This document shows positions 1 through 18,642 of a stretch of DNA of 20,000 nt, one piece after another. Below the pieces are notes generated by a model, which was given only the letters and a program-made list of their open reading frames with translations, was not told the origin of the DNA and ran no database searches. This DNA comes from Rozella allomycis CSF55 (lineage: Eukaryota): the NCBI GenBank assembly GCA_000442015.1, contig KE560907.1, forward strand, positions 56,225 through 76,224, read 5' to 3'. The translations under genes and the position numbers were made by a program. Position 1 is the first letter of the stretch, and each line of letters begins with the position of its first letter.

Positions 1-709
1 CCTTCCAATTCTTGTTGATTTCCATAAATTTGGCTAATAAATCCATGTTTCAATGCTTCATCTGCATGAAATGTTCTTCCTGTAAGGCATACTTCTCTAA
101 CCCAGCTCTATAATACATAGCCATGTATTATACCTGATTCCCGACTACTTTTGGAAACCTTTGAAGAGATCCAACATCGGCACAAAGCCCAATATCAACT
201 TCCTTTAATCAAAGCATAACTATGAAATCACCTTTACGGAAAACTTGGCATCCGCACTCGCCAATCTTATGTCACAGGCGCTAATAATGTCCACTCCAGC
301 ACCAATACATGCATTGTGTACAGCAGCTATTACTGGTTTATTGCACTTTTCCACTGCTGAAACACCGTCCTGCATTGGTCCTAGGATTTGCCTAATTAAC
401 AAGGCAGATCGCGAAGGGTCGCTTTTCTTTTGGTTTGCAAGTGCAGCAAAGTCCATTACTATAACCATTCATATTAAATATTACAATCAATTCCGGAACA
501 GAAATGTTTTCCTTGGCCACTAAGAATAATGCAGCGAACGACTGGGTCCTTGTCCAAATCTTCAAACGCTTGCTTGAATTCTCCCCAGAATCTTTAAAGT
601 GAATTGCATTTTTCTACTTGTAAATTAAAGAGTTGTGTTTTGATGGGTTGTTTAATTCAACAAAAGCAATGTGGCCTTTTTTGCTAACGATGATGGTTTC
701 AAATTGCAT
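1..709 (-). CDS. ECH1: Delta(3,5)-Delta(2,4)-dienoyl-CoA isomerase (crotonase/enoyl-CoA hydratase family), 3' end outside window; introns 592-617, 459-484, 203-231, 108-133
   Basis: Spliced translation MQFETIIVSKKGHIAFVELNNPSKHNSL...GKHFCSGIDL...KPVIAAVHNACIGAGVDIISACDIRLASADAKFSVKEVDIGLCADVGSLQRFPKVVGNQSWVREVCLTGRTF. The EVDIGLxADVGxLQR motif is typical of ECH1. Four GT-AG introns of 26-29 nt restore the frame. Confidence 0.92.
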
Positions 710-973
710 TTTTCGAATTTGTCAAATGCACTAGAATTTTTTGATGAGTATCAGAATTCACGGTTCGTTAGAATTACAGTCAAAATTTATAATACCGAGC
801 TAGTTATGAAAAATACATTTATTCAAGTTTGCCACAAAGAGTGTTTTAAATTTCGTTTGCATCAGTTTCGCTAATGAAGATGTTGCGTAGAACTGTAGTC
901 GTCTAAGAAATATTCATTAAATGATTTCTGATAAGTGGCTTTTCTAAATTTTGGATAACTTACCCCTGCAAAA

Positions 974-2827
974 ATGCCAAACGAGGGAGACACACCAATC
1001 AAGGCATGGGAACAAAGAAGAGCTGTAAAGTAAAAATTTACAATTTATACTATAGAATCGGAGGAAATGGGATGGAAAACCCATTTAAAGTGTCTATGAA
1101 GATGCCGTGTTGGATGAAACCAGGTAATAAGAAAGTTCATGAAGATTCACCTCATCCAAAGGTAAGAGGTCATAATGGGTGGTATAATAGATGATGAGGC
1201 GAGAGTTTAAAATAGATAGCAATACCGTGGTAGAGGATGACATTGAAAAGGACGATAACTTTAATCCGGGGACAGAGGGAAATCAAGGATTTGTAGTGGA
1301 AGAAAATCAAGGTGGGTGGATGAATGAAGATATGAACAGCAACAGTATGAATAGCAAAATGGTGGAACCAATTGAGAATAAGACAATAATGAATGAATTT
1401 CATGCTATAGGCAACGAACGCAATCAAGACAAAAAGGGAGATATATTAGACAGCATTATGAATTTGATTTCAGCACAGAGGAATGAATGTGAAAATGATA
1501 GAAATGAGATTGAAAAGCAAGTAAGAATATTTTCAACGAGAGAAATAGAAAATGATGATTTCCAACTACAAGGGTATAATACTAAGACAAGCGAATCAAT
1601 TAAAGAATTTAAAGAAATCGATAAAAGAAAATAGAATTGACAAAGTTGATGCAACTGTAATTTTCCATGACAGGATTGAAGAAATGAAAAATCAAATAAA
1701 ACATATTTTGGATTTGTCAAAAGATTATGAAAATGTTAAACAAAAATTAATAAATTTCAAAAATAAATTTGATGAAAAAATTGAAGAAAAAAATCGAGAT
1801 TTGAAAGAAAAGGAAAAAGATCTTGAAATTAAGAAATCTTGTTTGGAAAATTCTTTAAATGAAATAGAGATCTTAAAAAAAGAAATTCAAAAGAAAAGTG
1901 AGAATGAAAGTGAATTGAAAAGTAAAGTATTTGATCTAGAAAAAGAAATTCTAAAAATCATTCAAGAAAATGACGAAACTTTGAAATCAATTAATGAAAA
2001 TCATGAAAAAGATTTCATTGAATTAAAAAAGATTCATCTAGATCAAATTTCTAGCTTGGAAATTTCACATTCTGAATCTGTTAAAAGTAAAACCCTTAAA
2101 CCTTAAATCTAAAAATAGAACTGATCAATACCCATGAAATAACAATTTCTGAATTAAAGCAATCCTTTGAATCCCAAAAACAAAATTTATTAAAAGATAA
2201 AGAAATTGAAATTGAAGAATTAAAATCAAAAAGTGAATCTGAGATTAAAGATTTAAATGTAAAAATTCAAGAAGAAAAAGAGAAAATTCAGGAGCCCAAA
2301 ATAGATCTAAATCTTTTATTGGAAGAAAAAGAAGAAAAGTTTGAAAAAGAAAAAAAGGAACTTTATTCAGCCTTGCAGACAGAAATAACAAAATTAACAA
2401 ATGAAAAGAATCAATTAAATCTTTCCATTAAAACACTTCAAGATCAAATTCATTTACTGTCTCAAAAGAAAGACACATCTGATAGCATAACTCAAACTGA
2501 TCAAATTCAAACACCTTCTGTATTCTATTCATTCTTCTTAGATTAGACTGACATTGACTCTCACGTTAAATCTATTCTTCAAGAATTAGGAAATGAAATT
2601 AAAGAGTCTGACTCTAAAAATAAATCAAAGAGATTACCTTTAAACAACATTGATAGCAACACTCGTCAACGTTCTCCTCTTGCTAGAAAATCTTCAAGAA
2701 AATACACTTCTTCTCAAACAAACAGAAAGAAACTCAAAGTGGTATTTTTATTTCTTTCACTAAATAGGTTTATGATCATGATGTCACACCTGACACGCCA
2801 TCATATTGGCCATCAAGTAATGCATAA
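974..2827 (+). CDS. Long coiled-coil protein of unknown function; introns 1030-1055, 1162-1190, 1521-1548, 2087-2118, 2520-2546, 2742-2767
   Basis: Six GT-AG introns of 26-32 nt join the ORF fragments into one frame from MPNEGDTPIKAWEQRR to a TAA at 2825-2827. The centre is E/K-rich and heptad-like; the tail is basic and S/T/P-rich. Confidence 0.75.
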
Positions 2828-2869
2828 ACAACTAAATAATGTCAATAAAAGAATTCGCTATTTATTTAA

Positions 2870-3325
2870 TCATTCAATTTTTATAACTAGTGGTTTTACA
2901 ATCTGCCATTTAGTGAATGTATCAACCGCAAGGACGTTTATAGTAGCCACTCCTCTCTGTCTAGGCACCGTCCAATAAAACTTAAATGGTCCTTTCAATT
3001 TAAGATAGTCTTTCTGAGTAAATGATTGGCGCTTTCCTGCATCACATGCCGGATATTTGACTTTATTGTTGGGTAATGGTAATTGTCCTGCATTAGTCCA
3101 TGCTAGTATACCCTGTAACTTTGATTTTCCTTCTAATTCCAACACTATTGTTTCTCCTCGTTTAACCTTCGATGGGCCTTTGAGTTTATATCCAAGCTCA
3201 GAATTCTTGCCTCCCATTTTGGCTTTCATTTCTTTCTCAGTTATGGAGCACACTGGAGATCCATTAGGATACGCGCTCACATAAAATATTACCAGTGATA
3301 TCAGAAATATTGCTATGGATTTCAT
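2870..3325 (-). CDS. Small secreted Reeler-like domain protein, intronless
   Basis: Signal peptide MKSIAIFLISLVIFYVSA followed by YPNGSPVC, GIL, C...SFTQ and FYWTVP, matching the Reeler pattern (YPxGAPxxC...GFL...WtaP). Confidence 0.75.
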   Translation of the reverse strand: MKSIAIFLISLVIFYVSAYPNGSPVCSITEKEMKAKMGGKNSELGYKLKGPSKVKRGETIVLELEGKSKLQGILAWTNAGQLPLPNNKVKYPACDAGKRQSFTQKDYLKLKGPFKFYWTVPRQRGVATINVLAVDTFTKWQIVKPLVIKIE

Positions 3326-3379
3326 CCTGAAGAAATAGGGGTAAATTTGAAACACTATATGTCATGCATTTTTTCTCTG

Positions 3380-3410
3380 ATTGGTCCATTAATGGATACG
3401 AAGAACCAAT
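3380..3410. promoter_or_regulatory. Putative bidirectional promoter core: two opposed CCAAT boxes flanking a 12-bp palindrome
   Basis: ATTGG at 3380-3384, TCCATTAATGGA at 3385-3396 and CCAAT at 3406-3410, within the 171-bp gap between divergent starts at 3325 and 3497. Confidence 0.35.
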
Positions 3411-3496
3411 GAAATATTGATCAGCTATTTAATTTTCTGCTGTAATTGAAAAACTATAGCACATTATTAATTTCAGAAAAATCATAAATATTTTTG

Positions 3497-4206
3497 ATGG
3501 TCCTATTTTTTAAGAGCACTGGTACGTTAATTTACCTAAAATTTAAAAGTCATTGATCCACCTGCCGAAATATATATGGGAAAAGATAAATTTGAAAGTA
3601 AGCCATAAATTTTCAAAAAATAGACGAGGATTTGATAAAACATGGTTTTGAAGAAGACATCTGGTATTTATCAAGAAATTAAGTTAAGAAAGGTTTCACG
3701 TAGATAATCTGTCTTCTGCTCACGTTTACCTGAGAATGCCGGATGGGATGAAGTGGGATTCTATTCCAGATGCACTTTTGACCGATTGCGCTCAGCTAGT
3801 TAAAGCAAATAGCATTGAAGGAAACAAAAAGGATAATATCAACGTGGTTTATACACCTTGGTCGAATCTAAAAAAGACAAAGGGAATGGAAGTTGGTCAA
3901 GTTGGATTCCACAAAGAAGGCTTGAGAAAAAAGATATTTGTGGAAAAAAGAAGTAACGAAATTGTAAATCGACTGAATAAAACGAAGATTGAAAGAGAAG
4001 TTGATTTTTCTCAAGAAAAGATTAATCGAGATAGAACGAAACGTAAAGAAAGGCAAGAAAGGGAAAGAAAGCAGAGACAAGAGGCCGTGCAAAAACAGAG
4101 AGAAAAAGAAGAACGAGAAAGGCAGTTGCATTATGAAGATGTTTTTGAAAACGCTGTAATGAAATCAAACTATGACAATCAAAATTTGGAAGATGATTTT
4201 ATGTAA
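3497..4206 (+). CDS. CCDC25: CCDC25/Jlp2 family NFACT-R (DUF814) protein; introns 3522-3549, 3598-3623, 3664-3692
   Basis: Spliced [52 protein letters not shown]...[15 protein letters not shown]...[10 protein letters not shown]...VGQVGFH...EDDFM; these are the family's characteristic motifs. Confidence 0.96.
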
Positions 4207-4221
4207 AAAGGTAATAAATTC

Positions 4222-5215
4222 TCATATATTTCCAATGACTGTTTTTGAGACTAAATCAGATTCATTTTCTCCATTCGTGAATATCACCTTGGTGTTTGGC
4301 GCCTTCGACATATTCGCCAGAGTTTCTAAATATCTGATTTGCATCGCCGCGGGTGTGTTCAAAATATCTGATGCTTCCCTCATTAATTTAGCTGCTGTGA
4401 CTTCGGCACGTGCTGCAATCACTTTGCTTTCCCCGACTCTCTTTGCTGCGGCCACCGCGGAAAGATCTTTCAAAGTATAAAGCATTGAAATTTACCATCC
4501 ATCAAGTCTTTCGAGAACTGTAAATCTTTTATAAGAATGCTTTCAATCCCAACGCCCCATGATTTTGCTGTGTCTTCAATTATTCTTTTAATGTCAAGTG
4601 CGATATCGTCTCTGTTAGATACAAGACTATGCAAGTCACGACTACCAATCGAGTCTCTCAATGTGGTTTGTGCTCTTTCACGTAATGCCAAACTAATATC
4701 TGCCACCTGGCACCGGGCCACAAAGGGATCAACAATATGCCAATACAACACCGAATCAATGCTTACATTAACATTATCCTTGGTCATAACCTTTGTAAGT
4801 AAGAATATTATGTTACCTCTTGCCGTGGTATGTCCATGACTTGAATCGATACCGAAACAACTTCTAGGAATTCTGTTTCAGTGTTAATGGAATGAAGACC
4901 GGGATCCAATATTTTGTACACAACGCCAAATTTACTGACAAGGCCTACATTTCCTTGTGTGACTAGTAATTATGAGAGTTAGCTGATACTTGTTTTCATA
5001 GGGTTAGAGCAACAACAACATGGAATATAGGCACCAAAAAAACCCTTTAAATTGCCATACCAAGTCTTCACATTTTCATAGAGTGCATGGCTGCTTGGTG
5101 GAGTATCACTGATGTCGCGGGCGAAGGTAACAGGTATAGAATACCCGTTTGGGGGTTCTGTTACAAATGCTTGCTTCTGAATTTGTGGAGCAACTGACGG
5201 CATTACTGATTCCAT
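4222..5215 (-). CDS. Stomatin-like SPFH/band-7 protein, paralog A; introns 4963-4989, 4791-4816, 4467-4495
   Basis: GLVSKFG...DPGLH, MTKDNVNVSIDSVLYW, ERAQTTLRD, WGVGIESILIKD, AKLMREASDIL...AMQIRYLETL, and a Cys cluster PCCCCSNP. Confidence 0.92.
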
Positions 5216-5255
5216 AATAGATTGGGACTACCCTGGCAAAACTATATTGACAACA

Positions 5256-6203
5256 ATGGACGAAAAATCAAGTATGGATTCTCTTCTGGCCCAAAACAAA
5301 GTTAATGAGTACATAAATACGCCTCCAGTAGATAATATACCGCCGGCTTACAGCATTCCAAATTCATTTGCAAAGACATTGGATGTGCAGCCCCCTTCAC
5401 ATGGCTCTTATGAGAAACTATTAAATGCATGGGGTAATTGTATGGGGTTTTTAGGTGCCTACATTCCCTGTTGCTTTTGTTGTCCTTCTCCATTTAAAAT
5501 AGGTAAAATTATGATATAGGAAAAAACAGTACCACAGGGATATGCAGGGCTTGTCAGTAGATTTGGGAAAGTATACAAAATAGTTGATCCTGGTCTTCAT
5601 TTTGTGAATTTAATGACCGAAAACCTAGAAATGATGGGGATTAAGGTTAATGTTTCTGGAGTTCCAAGACAGCAAGTTATGACTAAAGATAACGTTTCTA
5701 TTTCCGTTGATTCGGTTCTTTATTGGCATGTAATTGATCCCTTTGCAGCCAGATATCAAGTTTCTAACGTTGAAAAAGCTTTGTCTGAAAGAGCCCAAAC
5801 CACTCTAAAAGACGTTATTGGGGCTCATGATTTACAGACTATTGTGTCAAACAGAGAAAAGGTTGCAGCGGAAATAAGAAACATTATCGACAAACCATCA
5901 AGATCCTGGGGCGTTGTAATCGAGTCAGTTTTAATAATGGATATAAGATTTTCTCAAGAAATGTTATTAGATCTAAGTGCTGCCGCGAAACAGAAACGAT
6001 TGGGAGAGAGTAAGGTAATAACAGCTCAGGCTGAAGTTGAAAGCGCTAAGCTAATGAGAGAAGCCTCAGACATTTTAGCTTCAAGTGCTGCTATGCAAAT
6101 TCGATACTTAGATACGCTAACAACAATGGCAAAACACGGTGATCAAAAAGTCATCTTCATGCCAACTGTTCATTCTACTAGTACTGACAATAAGAAAAAA
6201 TAA
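5256..6203 (+). CDS. Stomatin-like SPFH/band-7 protein, paralog B; single intron 5503-5529
   Basis: VPQGYAGLVSRFG...DPGLH, MTKDNVSISVDSVLYW, ERAQTTLKD, AMQIRYLDTL, and a Cys cluster PCCFCCPSP. Clearly homologous to paralog A. Confidence 0.92.
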
Positions 6204-6229
6204 ATAAATTTTGGTCACTTAACTCATAT

Positions 6230-6706
6230 TTATTTGATATGAGCATAGACCACTCGGCCAACATTCGGGTATGATCTGTTGTAATAAGTTTCCCAATCTT
6301 TTAATGTATCGAACTTTTAAATGACAAAATATAACCTTACTTCTTCGTCATTTAAATCATTAAGTTCATTAGAGCACATATCTTCAGTCAAGCATCCTTT
6401 AGCTAATGCCTAAACCAAAAATGCAGATCTATCAATTTACCCTGGCACATTCCCTCCCGGCCAAAATATGATACCCTTTTCCCAGAGCATAAAGATGTCT
6501 TTTGCATGTAACATCATAGATAACTCCGTTAATAGCTACATAGACTGGTTTATGAGAATCTGTCCCATCAAATTCCCGTAGCTCGTCTAGGGTCAACTCA
6601 ACATTAATGGGGTTTTCTTTTTGTAGTTCTTTATTTGTAGAAGCTTCATACTCAGGGATTGCATCTCTTTAACTATAATATTTGCGTTTTACAGATTGGA
6701 AAGCAT
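6230..6706 (-). CDS. DAP1: Cytochrome b5-like heme/steroid-binding MAPR family protein (Dap1/PGRMC-like), absent from the ORF track; introns 6667-6692, 6410-6440, 6314-6340; start codon uncertain
   Basis: Spliced LTLDELREFDGTDSHKPVYVAINGVIYDVTCKRHLYALGKGYHILAGRECARALAKGCLTEDMCSNELNDLNDEEFDTLKDWETYYNRSYPNVGRV is a classic MAPR signature. No N-terminal transmembrane helix is seen in this model. Confidence 0.85.
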
Positions 6707-6923
6707 TTATATGTCGTGGCTTAGATAGAATCAAAAGATCAGATTCAACTTTATCACCCATTGCCTACTAATAGTAATTATAGGAGCTTATAATTCTTCT
6801 TTTGAATTTTTTCGATATTTTGAATAGCTCAATATAATTATACAAAGAGACATTCCCGATTTCTCGAGAGTTTGAGTGATGTTACGTAGATGATTGTCTT
6901 TTCGCTATATTAAATATTACTAT

Positions 6924-7518
6924 ATGTGTAGGGACGTAAAGTGACACGGTCCGATAAATTCTATATTTAGTGTGGCTTGGATTTGCTGCGACTTTTTATG
7001 CCATACCAGGATCTGTATAGTGAAGCTCAAAATACCTTGAAGACATCCAAGTGCCGAATTGGAATTTTGATCTGCTTTACTATTCTAAGTGTAACAAATA
7101 AGCCATGTTAGATAGGAAGATTCAAGTGGTGTACCATTTATATCAAAAGAATCGTTATGACTACGACCTAGACAATTTACTTTCTGTCTATTTGCTTTTT
7201 CTATATTTAACAGGCTTCAAAATCTTTTACCAAAAGCAAATCAACTCTTTACAGTTCTTCAACAAACTTTTCGTTATTAGTGGTTTAGTGGAGACTTTTT
7301 TTGATGCTTTTAAGATTATACCCAGTAAAGCTCTCCTCCTATACGCATACAAACTTGCTGTGTTCTTTTTGTTGCAGTCATATTTTTACGAGCTAGGCAG
7401 AGAACGTCAATACATTATAAATAGGACTGTAAATCAAGATATTCTATCAATGTATTATTATGTTGATTCGGATTCAGAACGATTACCACCATATCAAGCT
7501 ATCGGAAGTCCAGTCTAG
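6924..7518 (+). CDS. Small multi-pass membrane protein with C-terminal LPPY motif; proposed introns 6936-6970 and 7091-7119
   Basis: Proposed splice gives MCRDCGLDLLRLF...RIGILICFTILSIQVVYHLY..., joining ORF 7105-7518. About four hydrophobic segments, ending ERLPPYQAIGSPV. The 5' structure is tentative. Confidence 0.55.
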
Positions 7519-7662
7519 TTTTTACACGCACTATATGACATTTTGACCAATTAAGATTGAACATATAAACTGTAATTAATATCCAATAATAAACCGTTAA
7601 CAATATCGCAGAAAATTTTGTTTCTAAATCCTATTGTGTGGCTAAGCCCAAAAATTAGGGTG

Positions 7663-8789
7663 ATGTCGTTAATGTACATATTTAATCGTGACAAGAGATC
7701 CGAACCCTGCCAAGCGATCGAACTTATTGATTTGAAATCTTCTTTGGGCACCTCATTGCTATTTGCTGGGTACATAACATTCTTTTGCCATTAATGACTA
7801 GTGCTGAAAATGGTGAGATATGTTGCTATTCGCTCGATGATAAAAAAAGAAGATTTTATTTTAAAGCTCACAATAATTGCATTCTTCAACTTAAGTCTTT
7901 TGCCTTTGATAGTGGAATTATTCTTGTTTCTCAGGGAAGAGATTCTTATATTCATCAATGGTTATTCAATTTTAATGAAAGCAATATTCTGAAAAATACA
8001 GATTCTGAAGTTAACCTTAAAGCCTGCAGATCTGTATCAGTGCAAAATTTTAGTTTTTGCAGAATGGAAATAATGCGACGACCGTCAAATGAATTAATTG
8101 GACTTTTACCGGAAGAAAATAATGTATATTTCTTTATTTTTTAATATCAGATATTAATTTTTAATTTGACGTCCAATGAAAGAGTAGATGTCATTTTGAC
8201 CAATGAAAAAACAAATGGTTCATTGATGTGCCTAATACCTTTAAAAGTTGAAAGTCATTCAATTCTTTTAGCTTCAGGACATGAAAGCGGTTCAATATCT
8301 GTATATTGTTATAATTTTCTTTTACGTAAAATAACCTTGACTCACTCCATCAAACTACATAAAGAACCCAGTAAGTCATATAATAGGAATATAAAAGTCA
8401 TGTCAATTGCTTCTCTGGGAAATGCTATTGTTACAACTTCAGTTGATAATATATTGTACATGCTTCAATTCAGCGATTTGACGGATGACTCAAAAACAGA
8501 ATTAGAATATGAAAAATACAACTGCAAGTTGCCTTCACATGGCGTCAATCATGTTTGCGTAAACTCAGATTTGAAAATGATGACTGTATCTAGTTGGGAT
8601 TGTTCGTAATTGGGTGTCATTGAATATTTTAGTGTATACATATATAGTCGCTCTTTACGGCTTAAAAAAACTCTATCGTTACATCGAGACAGCATTTATT
8701 GCTCGATATTTTTCCAGAATGCTGAAAGAGATTTCCTTGCAGTTAGTTCAAAAGATGGGCTTATTAGCTTGTGGGACTTGACTAAATGA
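7663..8789 (+). CDS. ASA1: WD40 protein of the ASA1/GNB1L family; introns 7770-7801, 8124-8150, 8371-8397, 8606-8632
   Basis: LLFAGAENGEI...FKAH...LVSQGRD...FSFCRM...LLASGHESGSI...HKEPIMSI...GVNHVCVNSDLKMMTVSSWD...LAVSSKDGLISLWDL follows the ASA1/GNB1L motif order. Confidence 0.8.
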
Positions 8790-8856
8790 TTAGAGCAAAA
8801 GAAATAAATAACAATTTTTGACATGCAGAGTAACGAATAGGTTGATAACATTTATT

Positions 8857-11800
8857 CTAAGGATAGTTGGCTTTAGAATTCTGCTCTTTTATGTTTCTGA
8901 TTTGATTTCGCGACATTTCAAGGTCTCGGTAAAATATGTTTATGGCATTGTCGACACCATTCTCTTCTCTTAATTTAGCACCCATCTGTTTTGATTTTTC
9001 AATTATTGCAGGATCCGATGTCACGTATTTTATTGCTTCTCCAAGTCTATCAAGTTTCTTCATAGAGCATCCGACACCCAACTCATAGCTTTAAATAAAA
9101 CATGATTACCTCTTGTACTCTTTGAGCCCAAAAGAATTGGTCGCCGAAAAATGGTTTAATAACAGTTGGAACACCAGCACGCATTCCCGCACTTGTTGTG
9201 CCAGCACCTCCGTGATGAACAACACATGCCATTTGCGGAAAGAGCCAATCATGGGGCACTGAATCAATGCAGTAAATAAACTCGGGAAATTGAATCACGT
9301 CATCAGAAGGATTTTCTTTTCGGCCGGACCATCCCTTGCACACTATCGCTTTCAGCCCTGATTTTTTCACGCCATTGATAATTTGGGTTATCAATTCATT
9401 TGTATCATCTACAACTATCGAACCAAATCCAATGTAAATAACTTTATCATCAGTTGACAAAAAATCAATAAGTGCTTTTGGAGGTTCCCATTTATTTTCA
9501 GGATTGTCCAAATTCCAATATCCACTTGTTGTAATACGAACTTTTTGTTACGTTATATGGACCCAATCATGCCAATCATGTGGCTGTGGAGCAACCAAAG
9601 AGCTAAAACAATATAAATACGGAATAGATAAATCATCAATGTTTATAAAGCCAATAGGTTTCTAAACAAGAATTCGATTATCAGTTTACTAAATTCAAAG
9701 TTTCTTTCCTCCATTTATTGGTTTGACTTGCCCTTCCTTTCCAAAATACTTGCTGAAACAGCATGTAACTCATATAGTTAAAACCTCCGCCTAAAGGAGT
9801 TTCTGTTGTAGCAAATGGGTGTGGATACACAGTAGTCCTTGTCCATGGCATAGTAAAAGCACAAAAGTACGGAATTTCTAGTTTTTCTGCAATGTGCATA
9901 CCGGCCATTGCTGTTGGAGATTCGATGATGGCATCAGTTCCCTAAAATTCACATGCGACAATTAAACTACTTGGCAAGCTTCCCAAGCACTGACTAATAG
10001 CTCATCCACCCAATCTCTAAATTTGCGGACACCTTCACGAAAGAACTTTACAGTAAACATTCCATTTTCAACACATAAACTTATAAGCTCTGCAGGATTT
10101 CCGCCTATGCTGGCGAATTCTATTCCATGACTTTCAATCCACTGCTTGTACTCCAAATGAGTTACAATCCGGCATTTATGACCATGTAGAATAAACCCCA
10201 TTCTTAAGGGTGAAATATATTTACTTTGCATAAAGCGATGAAAGGTTGAACATCTCCTCTAGTTCCGATTGTTAAACAGGTTATATGCATCGGCTTTGGT
10301 CGAATCGCAACTTTCAATGGTTGAACAAATACTAGCGGAGTAATGTTTTTGTTTGCCAAATCATCCAATATAACATTATCTGCAGTGGTGGTAATTAATG
10401 ATTTGAAGTATAAAGAAAGTCTGTATTATAGAACTGATGTTAATACTTGTCTGAGATACCATCTTTTTCTTTGCTTTGAAGTTCGCCAACACATTTACAT
10501 AGTGTGTCGATACATTTCATTTTACTATCGAATGAAAAGAAATCGAAATAAAAGTTTCTCAANTATCCACTGCTTGTACTCCAAATGAGTTACAATCCGG
10601 CACTTATGACCATGTAGAATAAACCCCATTCTTAAGAGTGAAATATATTTACTTTGCATAAAGCGATGAAAGGTTGAACATCTCCTCTAGTTCCGATTGT
10701 TAAACAGGTTATATGCATCGGCTTTGGTCGAATCGCAACTTTCAATGGTTGAACAAATACTAGCGGAGTAATGTTTTTGTTTGCCAAATCATCCAATATA
10801 ACATTATCTGCAGTGGTGGTAATTAATGATTTGAAGTATAAAGAAAGTCTGTATAATAGAACTGATGTTAATACTTGTCTGAGATACCATCTTTTTCTTT
10901 GCTTTGAAGTTCGCCAACACATTTGCATAGGGTGTCTATGCATTTCATTTTACTATCGAATGAAAAGAAATCGAAATAAAAGTTTCTCAAATCTTTTGTG
11001 CCGATGTAAAGTCCTTTGAAAATTACTCCCTGATACACAGTCACCTGCTTTGTCTCAATGTCCCTGAGAGGAATTAAAACCTAATAAAACTCATTCATAC
11101 TTTAAATACCTTTGTTTGAATCCCTGTAACTCTAGATATGAATCCCACATAGTTAGGAGTGATAAATATTTTTCCTATTCTCGGAATAGTTTTCAGAAGA
11201 GCACAATTAAAAACTATTCCACTGACAGATGTTGAAGGTACCATCAATGACAGACTCAGATTCAGGCAAGGCGAATNTGGAGTGATAAATATTTTCCCTA
11301 TTCTCGGAATAGTTTTCAGTAAAGCACAATTAAAAACTATTCCATTTTTAGATGTTGAAGGTACCATCAATGACAGACTCAGATTCAGGCAAGGCGAATA
11401 TTTTTCTCAAATCCTTTTCCAGAGCTGCTCTGTCCGACCTAGATATGAAAAGAAAATTCCTCTGAATAAACTTGACCGTTGGAATGAAAAGATTTGTTGT
11501 AAATGTTAATATGTTCTTGGATGGTTTTTCTTCTTCGAAACTTTGCGAATCACCAAGAGTGGTATCACTTAGTCGGTCTTTACGCCTATTTGATTTGTAC
11601 TCATTTCGCCGATATTCTTTATAAAGAAATGAAAGATCTTGATATGCAATGTCTGTGCTTTGAAAGTATGCAAAATAATACTGTTTCTAGTTCAATATCA
11701 TGATTACTTCATCAGTAACATTTTGTTCGTCAGATATTTTAACTATCAAGGCCTCCCTGATTGTCGCAGGACATGAAAGTGATATTTCAGTGATAAAAGA

Positions 11801-12611
11801 ATACGGAATAACAATCTTTGCAATCATAAAGATGTAATTACTTTAATTGAATCTCCAAGATTTTTTGCTTTGAAGGTGGCGGCTTCAATACTCATTAGCC
11901 ATTCGTCAAGTGCTACCTCACTGTCAGCTTGAAATATCCATCTTTTGCCCAAAGCAACAATTTTGAAGGACACGCTAGATATTCTTTTAACATTGCTTAT
12001 TGTTTTCAAATCTAATGACCCAAGCGGACTGTATATATCCTTCTCGAAATTAGCGGAATATTTTACATTTGAAGATTCATAGTATCTCATTGTTTCATTA
12101 TTTAGAATAAACCAATAACTAGTAAATATTGCCGCAGACCTATTCTTTTTCATTAACCATCCCGCCTTTAACGTCTGGCCCTTGAATTAGTATCAACTTG
12201 TGGACTTACTTGCTCAGACGGCAAGGTAGCATAAAAGCAGAGCGAGAATCGTGTTAGAAATAATACCCCTTTCACAAATACATTCCGCACCAACCAGCAA
12301 GGATATTCTGTCAACCAATTAGTGACAATTTACCGGAAATAAAGTGATCATTTTCAGACAGTTCGAATATTTCTTTAATTTTCTTTTCATAATCTGCATT
12401 CTCTTCAATAACAGATTGTTCCCTGGAATGACCTACATTTGCATCTGCGTTGCATCAACAGTGAGTGCTTACGTTGTGTCAAACTTGGATCCCTGAAAAA
12501 TATCTCTGCGTCATTTTCATCTACATTCTTATCAGTGCAAATAGAGGCATTTACTGTGGTGTAAGATAAACTAGCCAAGGCGGATACTATTTTGAAAACA
12601 TGCGTATTCAT
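8857..12611 (-). CDS. ATG26: Sterol 3-beta-glucosyltransferase (GRAM-PH-GRAM-glycosyltransferase), about 14 micro-introns, with two internal duplicated blocks at N joins
   Basis: [18 protein letters not shown] (GRAM), KAGWLMKK...YWFIL...PLGSLDL (PH), [97 protein letters not shown]. Confidence 0.96.
10137..10990. repeat. Direct duplication of 426 bp (10137-10562 and 10565-10990) either side of N10563
   Basis: Offset 428; about 7 differences, all synonymous or in proposed introns in the ATG26 frame. Confidence 0.95.
11156..11399. repeat. Direct duplication of 121 bp (11156-11276 and 11279-11399) either side of N11277
   Basis: Offset 123; 7 differences, 4 in the 28-nt intron and 3 not changing the protein (Gly, Leu). 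Confidence 0.95.
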
Positions 12612-13414: not shown

Positions 13415-16400
13415 TTATTCCATGTCAAATTCAGAATTATCGTCGCCCTCGGAATAAAAGTCACCTTCGGAATAAAAGTCGTCCTCTTCATAATCCTCAT
13501 TCCAGTCATCAACGACATGTTTTTTCTCCTTAAGGTCATTTTGCATGAATAGCGCCAAGCTTTCTGCTATTTCTTTCTCCTCTCGTTCCGCTCTTTTCCT
13601 TGCTTCATTTTCTTCAATTTCCTTCTGCTTATTTTGAACATCAATCCAATTTTGAAAATCTGTAAATAACTTATGAATAATACATAGATATCTTACTTCA
13701 CTTACATCCTGATCTAACACTATGGTCAATAGATCATCTTCGTCCATTATTTCGTAAAATGGTTTTGCAAGTTTGTAAAACAGTTCGTCACCTTCTTCGT
13801 TTTTCTTTTTGAGACATGTGCGAAAAATATCGATACTGGATAAATCAACAGAGACAAGTAACATTGCAAGACGAATCTTCGTTTCAGTTCCTTTAGCGAT
13901 GGCGTAAGCTAATTGCCAGTTATCTTTTCCCACTGCAGCTTCAAACAAATGTGCCGCGAAAATCATTTTTCTTCCTTCATCTCCACGAAATTTTTCATTC
14001 CACAAATCAAGCCATTCCACATCATAATCTTTAATTAACTGTTGTAGAGTTCCAAGACCAGACAAAGCAATGCGTAATTCATAATTATTAAAATAACAAG
14101 GAATCATTATCTCAAGAATAGATTTGATTTTTTCTTTTGCAGAATGACTGAATAAATGGTCATTCTTTATGGCCCTTGACTCAATGAAGCGAGCGGCTAC
14201 ATCGATTGAAAAGATGCCCTTTTTAATCTGAGCATCGAAAATTGAAAGTGCTTGATCATGAACTTTCTCATCAAGTAAAAGTTTGTCAATATATTGACCT
14301 AGTGTAGAGTGGACGAGCAACGACGCTACAAAACCATCGCGCAAGCCTCTATTTTCTTCGTTGGATGGCCATTGAGTAGATAAACGTATATTCAATTCAT
14401 ATTTCAACTTCTGTCATAAAACGCGAAGACTTTCGTCAATTACGCCTGACACACATTTAAAGGTGTTCAACACAAAGTTAATCGTCGGGATTTGAATTGG
14501 ATGCTTTTTACTGTCCATTGATAAATTATCAAGATTTTCATTGATGTATTTTTTTAATTTGTGCCACTCCATATTTTTTACCATGCGTAGTAATTCAACT
14601 TTAAAGGACAGATCAGGATTTTCGATTTCTTGTAACCTTGCAGAAAGAGTTGCATAAATAAAATCAAGATCAAACATTTCTTCTTCTAAATATTTATTTA
14701 TCTCACTCCAACTTTTACTACTTACCCATTTTAGAATCTTTTGCTGAAACAATAATTCATTTTATCTTTTGACTAAACCTTCATTTGTAATCCAATCTCT
14801 CACTCCAAAAAGATTATTCACCACAAACGGGGCACCAAACATATTAATAGACTTGTCTAGACCATCATTTATTTGGTCCCATTTTTTATTATGAAGATTT
14901 TTTATAAATTGAAGCCTGTTGTAAAGGATTTCATGCTCATTTTGAATTGTATCTTCGTACTTGGCAAGATTGTTCAATACATATTTGAAAAGAATTCCCA
15001 TATTAAGATCACTAATAAAGCTGTCTAAAGAAATCCAGTCCTTTGCTGTCACGTATTTCCACAAATTCTTTTCTGTCAGATATAATTCATACAAATTAGA
15101 ATGATTCTGTTTAATATTACTTTCATAGAAGGCAAGTCTCGTGGTTACATAATCGGCTCCTAAGTAAAAAATATAAGTTTCGTAAAAGTTGTAATAGATA
15201 TTATCCCAATTAAGTTTTCTCAAGTTGATGTTGAACTCCAAATCTGCAACACATTTTAAATAATTCTTGTAAAGCTCACTGTCTTTATTAATGTCACAGC
15301 GCTCTAATATTGATACTACCAAGGCTAAATCCACCTCTCGAGCTTTGTGGTCGTCTTTGATAAGGTCATTGACTGCTGACCAATCTTTTTCTTTCACGGA
15401 TTTTAAAAATTGAAATCTTTTATAATAGATACTTTGCTGTATATCGCTATTGCTGTCCATTTCTGACATTTTGTCCACCACAAAGTCTAGGCCAAGTTCT
15501 TGGATTATATACTCTAGACAATAAGGTTGTAACCTAGCCCAATGATTGTTTTCCACTATATCTAAAAATTGAAGTCTTTTTTTCAAATATTCGGAGGAAC
15601 AGTTTCCATTTGGGCAAAGTACTTTTGCAACAAAGTCAAAACCCAAGTTTCTTACAGTGTCATCAAGATTCGCTCTGATTTTTCCCCAGTTTTTATTTTG
15701 AAAATCCACTGTAAATTCAACAAGTTTTTTTATCAAGGCTTTGGCCGCGTTGCATTGGAACATGGCCATTTTAGGTCTAGCATAAACAAGCATATCAATC
15801 AAAAAGTTAGGAGAAATCAATTTCTTGAGAATTTCAAAGTTAACACTAATAATATCCCATTGATTTTCGTTTATAGACCTTAACAAACTCAATTTTGCGT
15901 ATAGTCCATTTTCAGATTCGATCATGTCTTTATCCACATTTCTCAGGGCAGATACAATAATGGAGATATCGATTTCAAAGCTTACGGTATTTTGTTCAAT
16001 AAAGTTGTTCACTTCACACCACTCACCCTTAAATGCAGCATTAAGGAAGTCCGAAATAACAAGAAGAGATTTTGATTCTTTAGGAATTTCCACGCGAATT
16101 CGATCAAGAACAACTGCTGCAATTTGAGACCAATGTTATCAAAGTTATGCTCCAGTAACGATTTTACTTCAGACCATTCCTTCAGAGCCACATTTTGCAA
16201 GAACTGACGCTTGTCGTAAAGAGCACAATTTTCACTATTATTGTTAACTTTGGAAAGTATTTTCAAAACGTATTCAAAATCTAGTGAGTCAATATCAGCC
16301 TCGAGTCTAGAGTTCACTCGTGCCCAGTCGCTTTTGTTAACTAAACCTTCCAAAGAAGCCGGCATGGCTCTAACCTTAAAGAAAAGTAAAGCCAAGATAA

Positions 16401-16428
16401 CAAACGTTAAGGTACCCCTGGTAAACAT
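13415..16428 (-). pseudogene. Disrupted ~1000-codon secreted protein with about 12-13 tandem ~50-60 aa helical W...LY repeats and an acidic tail; one frameshift (~16125) and two in-frame stops (14762-14764, 14414-14416)
   Basis: Signal peptide MFTRGTLTFVILALLFFKVRA. ORFs 14762-16093, 14414-14752 and 13415-14407 share one frame and are separated by single stops. The repeat pattern continues across all breaks. Confidence 0.75.
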
Positions 16429-16633
16429 TTTTGTAGTGGCTTGGTGCGTTTCGCAAATTTAACCCTGTGTGGCTTAGTTTGAATTTTCAAATTCGGGCAT
16501 TTAGGAAATTCTTACTACTCCCAGTAAATTTCATGGAGTATATTTAATTTTTTAACCAATAAAGGATTTACAAGTTTTAATGATGTCCCTAATGTTATAT
16601 TCTTTTGGGCCATTGGCATGGCTTATTCTTTTT

Positions 16634-16894
16634 AATCTAAAGATCCAAGCGGACTGTATATATCCTCCTCGACATTACCTGAATATTTTACATTTGAAGA
16701 TTCATAGTATCTTATTGTTTCATTATTTAGAATAAACCAATAACTAGTAAAAATTGACGCAGACCTATTCTTTTTCATTAACCATCCCGCCTTTAATGTT
16801 TGGCCCTTGAATTAGCTTCAACTTGTGAATATACTTGCTCAGACGGCAAGGTAGCATAAATGGTAAAAGCAGAGCAAAAATCGTGTAAGAAATA
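16634..16894 (-). pseudogene. Diverged partial copy of ATG26 (matches 12009-12262), including two introns
   Basis: Roughly 85-90% nucleotide identity by eye. Encodes [56 protein letters not shown] then a stop, with a 7-nt insertion near 16860. Confidence 0.9.
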
Positions 16895-16895
16895 T

Positions 16896-16959: not shown

Positions 16960-17296
16960 NAGCCATCCCATAATTTGAACAGATGTTATTATTGCCTAAT
17001 AATTCTTCTGGTTTCCTTGTAAAGTCTGGATCGAGTAAATTGTCGCACTTAACAATTACACCATCTTTGGTTTTCATTTCTATTCGATACTATTAAATAG
17101 ACAAAATCCAGTTACGCGGTTACGGATAGCGCGATGTATTGCATATATTTCGTTCGCGGTCNCATATAAATTTTTTTCACGCAAAACAACTTTTTTCTAT
17201 TTGATCATTTTTTCACATTAGTGTGACTCGCCTAAAATAAAATCTACCTATATGCAAAACATTTACGAATTCATTTTACCGCTTTCTGCAATCGCA

Positions 17297-17332: not shown

Positions 17333-17501
17333 TTTTCTAGTTTCCTCTTGCGAATCCCGAATCCCCATTATCTTGTTCTGATAAAAAAATGTCTATAAAT
17401 TTTATCTTTTAATTAATATAACTGTTTAATCGATTGGATACTTTTAAAGATTTAAGGGGGACTCAAAACTAAGTGTAACAAGCAAATCTCATGGCTCTAA
17501 N

Positions 17502-18548
17502 CACATGACCATTTTCACTAGCGTCATCCATCGCTCTACCAGACCAATCCAACTGTAATCCACTATGTTTCCACCATTCGAGAATACTAACATGACCATT
17601 TCTACTAGCTTGATCCATTGCAATAAAAGTATATTTTAGCTCTAATCCACTCTCTCTGAACCAATCGAGAACATTAACATGACCATGATAACTGGCCTGA
17701 TCCATACAAAAATACCATTTACGCTCCAATCCGCTTTTCTGCCACCACTCAAGAATTTCAACATGACCATTTGAACTAGCACTCGTCACAGCATCATTCC
17801 ATTTAAGCTCTAATCCACTTTCTTTCCACCAATCAAGTACTTCAATATGGCCATTTGAACTAGCAAAATCCATAGTATTATCGCTCCATTTAAGCTCTAA
17901 TCCGCTATTCTTCCACCACTCAAGAACATTAACATGACCGCATTCACTAGCCCAATCCATAGCATAGTCACTCCATTTAAGCTCCAATCCACTCTCTTTC
18001 CACCACTCAAGAACTTTAAGATGACCATTTGAACTAGCCCAATCCATAGCATATTCACTCCATTTAAGCTCCAATCCACTATTTAGCCACCATTCGAGAA
18101 CTTCAACGTAACCATTGTTACTAGCAAGATTCATAGATTCTGCATCATAGAATAAATTATACTGGCCATTTTCCCACCACCTCAAGACATTTACATGCCC
18201 ATTCGCACAGGCCCAATGTATAGCGCCTCTCGGGCATTTAAATTTAAACCCGCTTTTTTTGAACCATTCCAAGACATCACTGCGTCCAAATCTACTTGCA
18301 CTTATCAAGGAACACTCACTTGCACCGTTTATTTTGGGTAGAAATATACTCAGATATTTAGTTGCTCCAGATGAACAAATTATATTATAATCCGATTTTA
18401 TCTTCAACGCTTCATAAAACAGCTCAACAGAATGAAAAGATAAAAGGAATGAGATACGATCATGTTCTGGAAGCAGACTTTGAATTCTATTTACCAGCTC
18501 GATTGGTAAGTCTTGTAAACGAGTAGAAGGCGCTTTTGAAAGATCCAT
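17502..18548 (-). CDS. F-box plus ankyrin-like repeat protein, intronless, 3' end cut by N17501
   Basis: F-box motif LQDLPIELVNRIQSLLP, then about 10 repeats of 28-29 aa with consensus AMDxASxNGHVxVLEWWKxSGLELKWS (87-nt period). Confidence 0.88.
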
Positions 18549-18642
18549 TAGTGAAAATTACGTAAATAACTTTTGTCGTACCAGGGTTTCTTGTCGCTCC
18601 ATGCGATTATAGTATCTTAATCCTCATAAATTGGATAATAAN

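Follow-up and report, generated by a model that had tools for sequence, protein, structure and literature searches.

In a 20,000-nt stretch of Rozella allomycis CSF55 DNA (contig KE560907.1, positions 56,225 to 76,224, hereafter referred to as the window), the minus-strand interval 10224..10199 is probably a real spliceosomal micro-intron of a sterol 3-beta-glucosyltransferase gene, and the productive mRNA of this gene would be joined at a UG located 4 nt after an AG. Use of this UG was deduced from the DNA in combination with homology, and on these grounds we regard it as reasonably likely. The one RNA run considered, X12, revealed low-complexity matches of about 20 nt elsewhere in the stretch only, and nothing on the gene.

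The host gene and its candidate intron

The gene is of the UGT51/ATG26 type. Its best database match is the protein P0001 of R. allomycis CSF55, its exons map along the chytrid protein P0006, and P0001 as well as the homologs carry the Pfam domains GRAM, PH and GT1 (Glyco_transf_28 / UDPGT). In comparison with UGT51/ATG26 (5XVM, 5GL5), the three domains GRAM, PH and GT1 and the G-x-RGDVQP...GH motif are common to both, and no relevant difference is apparent. When all 14 introns are removed and a duplicated stretch (see below) is counted once, the spliced coding sequence comprises 2817 nt and is open throughout. Judged by its sequence, the gene is an ordinary member of UGT51/ATG26, in which only the intron studied here is unusual. 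The features referred to throughout this discussion are as follows.

8857..12611 (minus strand): sterol 3-beta-glucosyltransferase gene (GRAM, PH and GT1) interrupted by 14 introns, the candidate among them; assigned by homology, bounds approximate
10225..10420 (minus strand): upstream exon, closing with the G-T-RGDVQP loop and IALCK; from homolog alignment
10199..10224 (minus strand): candidate micro-intron, 26 nt, GT..TG (GTAAAT...AATG); from sequence, homolog alignment and best profile score
10219..10224 (minus strand): 5' splice site GTAAAT; the start GTA is shared by 31 of 32 curated introns of the window
10203..10204 (minus strand): internal AG within TTAAG, ending at intron position 22 and out of frame; probably bypassed, or used unproductively
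10199..10200 (minus strand): TG dinucleotide inferred to act as 3' splice site; from alignment, profile and spacing, unchanged in record 8 of the DNA run X1
9971..10198 (minus strand): downstream exon of 76 codons, opening with GFILHGH; aligned to 5XVM/5GL5 from its first residue and supported by homolog identity
10565..10990 (minus strand): upstream copy of a 428-nt tandem duplication, abutting the N at 10563; the duplication probably reflects overlapping contigs that were not merged
10627..10652 (minus strand): candidate intron in the duplicate copy (other allele), ending in TG, with one base different (10637 vs 10209)
10603..10652 (minus strand): 50-nt GT-AG route taken by P0001, in the duplicate copy only, where a synonymous AAA>AAG (10175 vs 10603) makes an in-frame AG

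On the minus strand, TGC AAA closes the exon at 10225 and GGG TTT opens the next one at 10198. This agrees with the initial annotation, which had read the 26 nt between these codons as a GT..TG intron. The junction can alternatively be noted one base rightwards (TA..GG), leaving the mRNA identical. Inside the interval, AG occurs only once, at position 22 and thus 4 nt upstream of the TG; a further AG, present in one allele, follows 24 nt downstream of the TG. The candidate thereby displays a U2-type 5' site, a TG at an independently defined junction and an AG within 28 nt of this TG.

Two other classes of intron were rejected. U12-type introns are characterized by the 5' site consensus (A/G)TATCCTT together with a TCCTTAAC-like branch site; the candidate starts with GTAAAT and contains no TATCC, which rules out this type. 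A GC donor is ruled out as well, as it yields a TAA, and this codon, already pointed out in the initial annotation, was read in the sequence.

A PH-domain fragment of the same gene is located at 16629-16895 (minus strand) and is composed of one exon, the introns on both its sides and portions of the adjoining exons. Its identity to 12004-12235 amounts to about 92%, one gap of 1 nt included, and Ns are found nearby at 16960 and 17162. The fragment represents either the remnant of a pseudogene or a piece of a divergent haplotype that was misplaced.

Homolog alignment, intron lengths and allelic variation

In tblastn searches with P0006 and P0003, the alignment breaks at the K codon (10225) and resumes at the G codon (10198) with consecutive residue numbers, such that no residue is lost. 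The splice models were scored against a profile built from 33 homologs. Removal of 26 nt gave the best score of all models (354.7 bits), followed by a 23-nt AG..AG intron that adds M (349.1 bits) and a 20-nt AA..AG intron that adds VM (348.5 bits); the margin over these two models is only about 6 bits. The 80-nt GT-AG intron as annotated reached 302.8 bits, 52 bits lower than the 26-nt model. The scores were 45.3 bits for the 22-nt GT-AG intron and 44.9 bits for the intron-retained model. The former bears out the initial annotation, which had stated that the sole nearby AG leads to a 22-nt intron and a frameshift: the model contains nine stops.

The distance from RGD to GH amounts to 14 residues in 74 of 78 homologs and equally in the 26-nt model. 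Among the four exceptions, two carry insertions a few residues further on and two are truncated fragments. The downstream exon shows 59-75% identity to 33 non-Rozella homologs, aligns with the solved yeast sterol glucosyltransferase (5XVM, 5GL5) over query residues 1-75 (E ~6e-22), and the catalytic part stays open across four more introns downstream of the candidate. According to the initial annotation, a functional frame needs exactly 26 nt to be taken out. The alignment, the profile scores, the 14-residue spacing and the exclusively synonymous allelic variation described below are all in agreement with this claim.

A metagenome scan for relatives yielded 11 loci with 46-75% identity, all from distant fungi (L010, whose match starts at residue 33, was omitted). 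In each of the ten environmental fungal loci inspected, the next codon follows the K codon in the DNA without interruption, and no intron is found at this place. Two short predicted proteins of another lineage, P0043 and P0054, continue with V beyond IALCK and break off after 4 and 7 residues, respectively. These ends fit a run-on into a GT-starting intron at the same phase-0 site, and the intron position may thus be shared.

For comparison, 32 GT-AG introns of the window were collected in a curated set, the candidate being excluded and the scan permitting lengths down to 18 nt. Thirteen of them belong to the ATG26 gene and were placed by homolog alignment; the other 19 were placed by ORF continuity alone, one of these being a paralogous fragment copy. 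Lengths of 26, 27, 28 and 29 nt occur seven, eight, five and six times, lengths of 30, 31 and 33 nt once each, and 32 nt three times. The set hence ranges from 26 to 33 nt with no intron shorter or longer; all 32 introns end in AG and 31 start with GTA. Introns of about 30 nt are noted for R. allomycis in PMC6349667. The length of the candidate, described in the initial annotation as the most common one, is here the shortest and the second most common (7/32 vs 8/32 for 27 nt).

Internal AGs are frequently passed over in these introns. Skipped AGs with ending positions 17-24 are found in nine of the 32 and, within positions 20-24, in six. In the intron 2520-2546, a TTAG ending at position 22 is skipped and a TTAG at 27 is used, which is a close parallel to the TTAAG at 22 and the AATG at 26 of the candidate. 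With AGs at 20-24 bypassed in six introns and a minimum length of 26 nt in the set, the candidate's AG at position 22 is probably unusable. A scan of the window by open reading frame only, covering all 16 acceptor dinucleotides (AG 28, AT 19, TT 18 and TG 10 hits), was non-discriminating, as in-frame shifts around true introns inflate the hits.

Several other genes of the window were recorded. Two SPFH/Band 7 (stomatin-like) genes are arranged head to head at 4222-5227 (minus strand) and 5181-6203 (plus strand), each with micro-introns. A long repeat-rich gene at 13415-16458 (minus strand) has no Pfam match; it contains in-frame stops inside likely introns of 30 nt (14773-14744, starting with GTC) and 33 nt (14443-14411), and what looks like a 1-nt frameshift near 16130 may stem from an indel in the assembly. 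An ankyrin-repeat gene is located at 17472-18557 (minus strand), its repeats forming a tandem array of 84-87 nt units in the DNA (17539-18223).

Seven single Ns are dispersed over the window, and two of them (10563 and 11277) mark the joints of tandem duplications. The duplication at 10563 comprises 10137-10562 and 10565-10990 (428 nt, 99% identity), that at 11277 comprises 11156-11276 and 11279-11399 (123 nt, 94% identity), and both reveal allele-like differences. From their sequences, both are probably overlapping contig ends that were left unmerged and carry allelic differences. In the initial annotation, the second copy of the candidate intron served as an argument against a read error. 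Its description holds, the copy having the same TG and one different intron base, but the copy is an assembly duplicate of the same locus and not an independent gene. Consequently, the case it makes against a read error is weaker than had been supposed, and the gap is filled by the run X1.

Contigs of the public DNA runs X1, X2 and X3 were compared with the window over positions 1-10562. Runs and window may share one isolate, such that the runs exclude assembly and read errors, but not a strain-specific mutation. Between the window copies and the runs, allelic differences affect 11 codons, four of which are located downstream of the intron, and not a single amino acid is changed; six further differences fall in introns. 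This count was made among 40 of 181 run differences listed, such that others could be non-synonymous, and in codon 367 two changes taken together convert Leu to Leu. If about one quarter of random changes is silent, the chance of four silent changes out of four is roughly 0.004, and 11 out of 11 are very unlikely without selection; both figures are rough estimates. Since all 11 variant codons are silent in alleles bearing the TG, the downstream frame is still under selection. The TG state has accordingly coexisted with purifying selection on the catalytic domain, which argues against a dead gene as well as against models with long introns.

In the same comparison, two AT-rich stretches, each about 21 nt long (2176-2196 and 7844-7866), attracted attention, as a separate contig in each of X1, X3 and X2 matches both of them with 23 other letters in between. 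These matches probably reflect a short repeat shared from elsewhere in the genome, and not a deletion.

Alternative explanations

Of the alternatives, splicing at the AG at position 22 survives best, and we nevertheless consider it unlikely. It would cause a frameshift with a stop after eight codons and the loss of the catalytic domain, leaving either a young pseudogene or a product restricted to GRAM and PH. This AG is the only one within the usual intron span, AG ends every other curated intron, and in the human AG>TG mutants described in PMC2374985, other AGs are activated and splicing does not occur at the TG. However, a lost catalytic domain is difficult to reconcile with a catalytic part that continues open, with the above identity to other homologs, across the introns further downstream, and with allelic changes that are silent in four of four codons there and in 11 of 11 gene-wide, in alleles which share the TG. 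Furthermore, the resulting intron would be shorter than any in the curated set, where AGs at a similar distance are bypassed as described.

A small chance remains for longer canonical introns as implemented in P0001, the sole model for R. allomycis found by protein searches, one of them with the upstream exon. P0001 comprises 1010 aa, includes a duplicated block of about 100 residues twice and collapses to about 938 aa. It bridges the site with a GT-AG intron of 50 nt in one allele and with a GT-AG intron of 80 nt in the second. Both keep the frame, but the first removes the eight residues GFILHGHK from its copy, and the second removes 18 residues. The skipped segment is conserved from chytrids to yeast, lies in the region of near-constant GH spacing and aligns to the solved UGT51, and the profile score falls by the 52 bits noted for the 80-nt annotated model. 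In addition, the AG of the 50-nt intron exists in one allele only, where it arose by a synonymous change, and the longest curated intron has 33 nt. Measured against the homologs, P0001, the only public model, is wrong at the candidate intron. Gene models in the R. allomycis genome are distorted by an AG-only rule and by assembly duplicates, in this case at the expense of a conserved segment of the catalytic domain.

We see only a slim prospect for a shifted donor combined with the AG at position 22. The respective 23-nt AG..AG and 20-nt AA..AG introns keep the frame, add M or VM, and both models are open and score merely about 6 bits below the 26-nt model. Yet their donors, located 1 nt ahead of or 2 nt beyond a perfect GTAAAT, would not be GT. 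The 14-residue spacing would be lost, and both introns are shorter than all 32 curated ones.

An error of sequencing or assembly, by which TG was called in place of a true AG or by which a miscalled GGGG homopolymer shifted the frame, would be conceivable in a window with duplications at single Ns and with the apparent frameshift near 16130 in another gene. The TG and the following GGGG are, however, identical in the two window copies and in the independent DNA run X1. Record 8 of X1 spans 10152-10562 with no gaps and three differences (10209, 10405 and 10427), none of them at the TG or the GGGG. Record 21 of X3 spans 9754-10208, again with no gaps and with three differences, one of which was placed. 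Record 12 of X2 spans the whole of 1-10562 with 13 gap letters, all outside the gene, and 122 substitutions; as only part of these were listed, agreement at the TG rests on X1. No indel within the gene occurs in the contigs of X1, X3 or X2 over window positions 1-10562, and a homopolymer error rescuing the 22-nt intron was rejected on these grounds. An AG at the 26-nt position in the reads, which the initial annotation had named as the observation that would speak against a TG end, is not what X1 reveals: at contig level, it has TG. Since X1 is without difference at TG and GGGG and all three runs are free of indels in the gene, an error of either kind is very unlikely.

Retention of the intron with a frame restored by the ribosome or by a recoding event has a negligible chance: the frame of the downstream exon extends backwards through the 26 nt without a stop, but about nine residues would be inserted into an otherwise invariant spacing, and the perfect 5' splice site and the intron-typical length speak against it. 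For programmed ribosomal frameshifting, a slippery heptamer with a downstream stimulator was looked for, and no such heptamer was seen by eye in the sequence of the region.

Proposed mechanism and known systems

We therefore return to the 26-nt GT-TG intron as the preferred reading. Its normal GTAAAT 5' site and an upstream branch site would commit the intron to splicing. The AG at position 22 would lie below the minimum workable length or too near to the branch point, and would either be bypassed or give rise to an unproductive, frameshifted mRNA. No possible 3' site would be more than about 12 nt away from the branch point, and the second step would take the first dinucleotide ending in G at the usual distance of 26 nt. 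A UG keeps the terminal G, which pairs with the 5' G according to cryo-EM structural work. Splicing at the UG may be inefficient and may be accompanied by splicing at position 22 or at the distant AGs (50 and 80 nt), such that a mixture of products appears likely. The AG at position 22 may even serve for early recognition in the first step, as was proposed for human TG/AG tandems (PMC2374985).

A more general, tentative and rather unlikely idea is that the second step in the 26-33 nt introns of R. allomycis would choose the 3' site mainly by its distance from the 5' site or the branch point. The need for AG would be relaxed, perhaps by loss or alteration of Prp18, Fyv6, Slu7 or Prp22, and productive non-AG micro-introns might then form a genome-wide class which annotation has missed or patched by false long introns. 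The initial annotation had inferred that this spliceosome accepts a UG acceptor at the right distance, which would be a further step beyond the frame evidence. Against this claim, as against UG use in the candidate itself, stands the count within the window, a single TG case vs 32 introns ending in AG.

In a non-exhaustive search of the literature, we found no description of non-AG splicing in Rozella, and a term search did not find GT-TG in the main text of a fungal survey of non-canonical splice sites (PMC7072748). GT-TG introns are recorded in other surveys, too (PMC4176328, PMC1557818). If confirmed by RNA, the candidate would provide a conserved enzyme that depends on a TG 3' site, contrary to the expectation from human genes as given in PMC2374985. 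At only 26 nt, it would also be a compact natural substrate for work on 3' site choice near the branch point in the second step.

Three known systems are informative here. AGs near the branch point can be bypassed (PMC1431707), and in this AG exclusion zone, as in the six window introns mentioned above and probably in the candidate, the used site is preceded at close range by an AG that is passed over. The difference is that the next AG is used in the exclusion zone as described there, whereas the candidate has a TG as its next dinucleotide at the usual distance.

In yeast lacking Fyv6 or Prp18, branch-proximal non-consensus 3' sites, including non-AG sites, become usable as the fidelity of the second step relaxes, and branch-proximal 3' sites need less Prp22 (PMC11651659). 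These sites resemble the candidate in a 3' site very near the branch point, inferred in our case, and in the relaxed need for YAG, which extends to non-AG, and they suggest a reason why a micro-intron might be joined at UG. They are, however, cryptic sites in mutants, whereas the candidate would be a productive site of the wild type.

The closest correspondence is given by the human TG 3' splice sites, which PMC2374985 reports from 36 genes, in the cases described there always within 28 nt of an AG and never as the sole site, the TG being chosen late. Tandems such as those of GNAS, TSPYL2 and ARS2 share with the candidate a normal GT 5' site, a TG end, a purine at +1 and a nearby AG, which is located 4 nt upstream in our case. 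In view of this layout, which escaped the initial annotation, a bypassed AG 4 nt upstream of the TG makes the candidate less exotic than a stand-alone UG acceptor would be. In contrast to the candidate, the human TG is an alternative to a productive AG in introns of hundreds of nucleotides. Here, the AG is out of frame and the TG would be the sole productive site of an intron of 26 nt. In its architecture the candidate matches the known TG/AG tandem. What would be new is the very small size of the intron, together with a working protein that is obtained from the TG alone.
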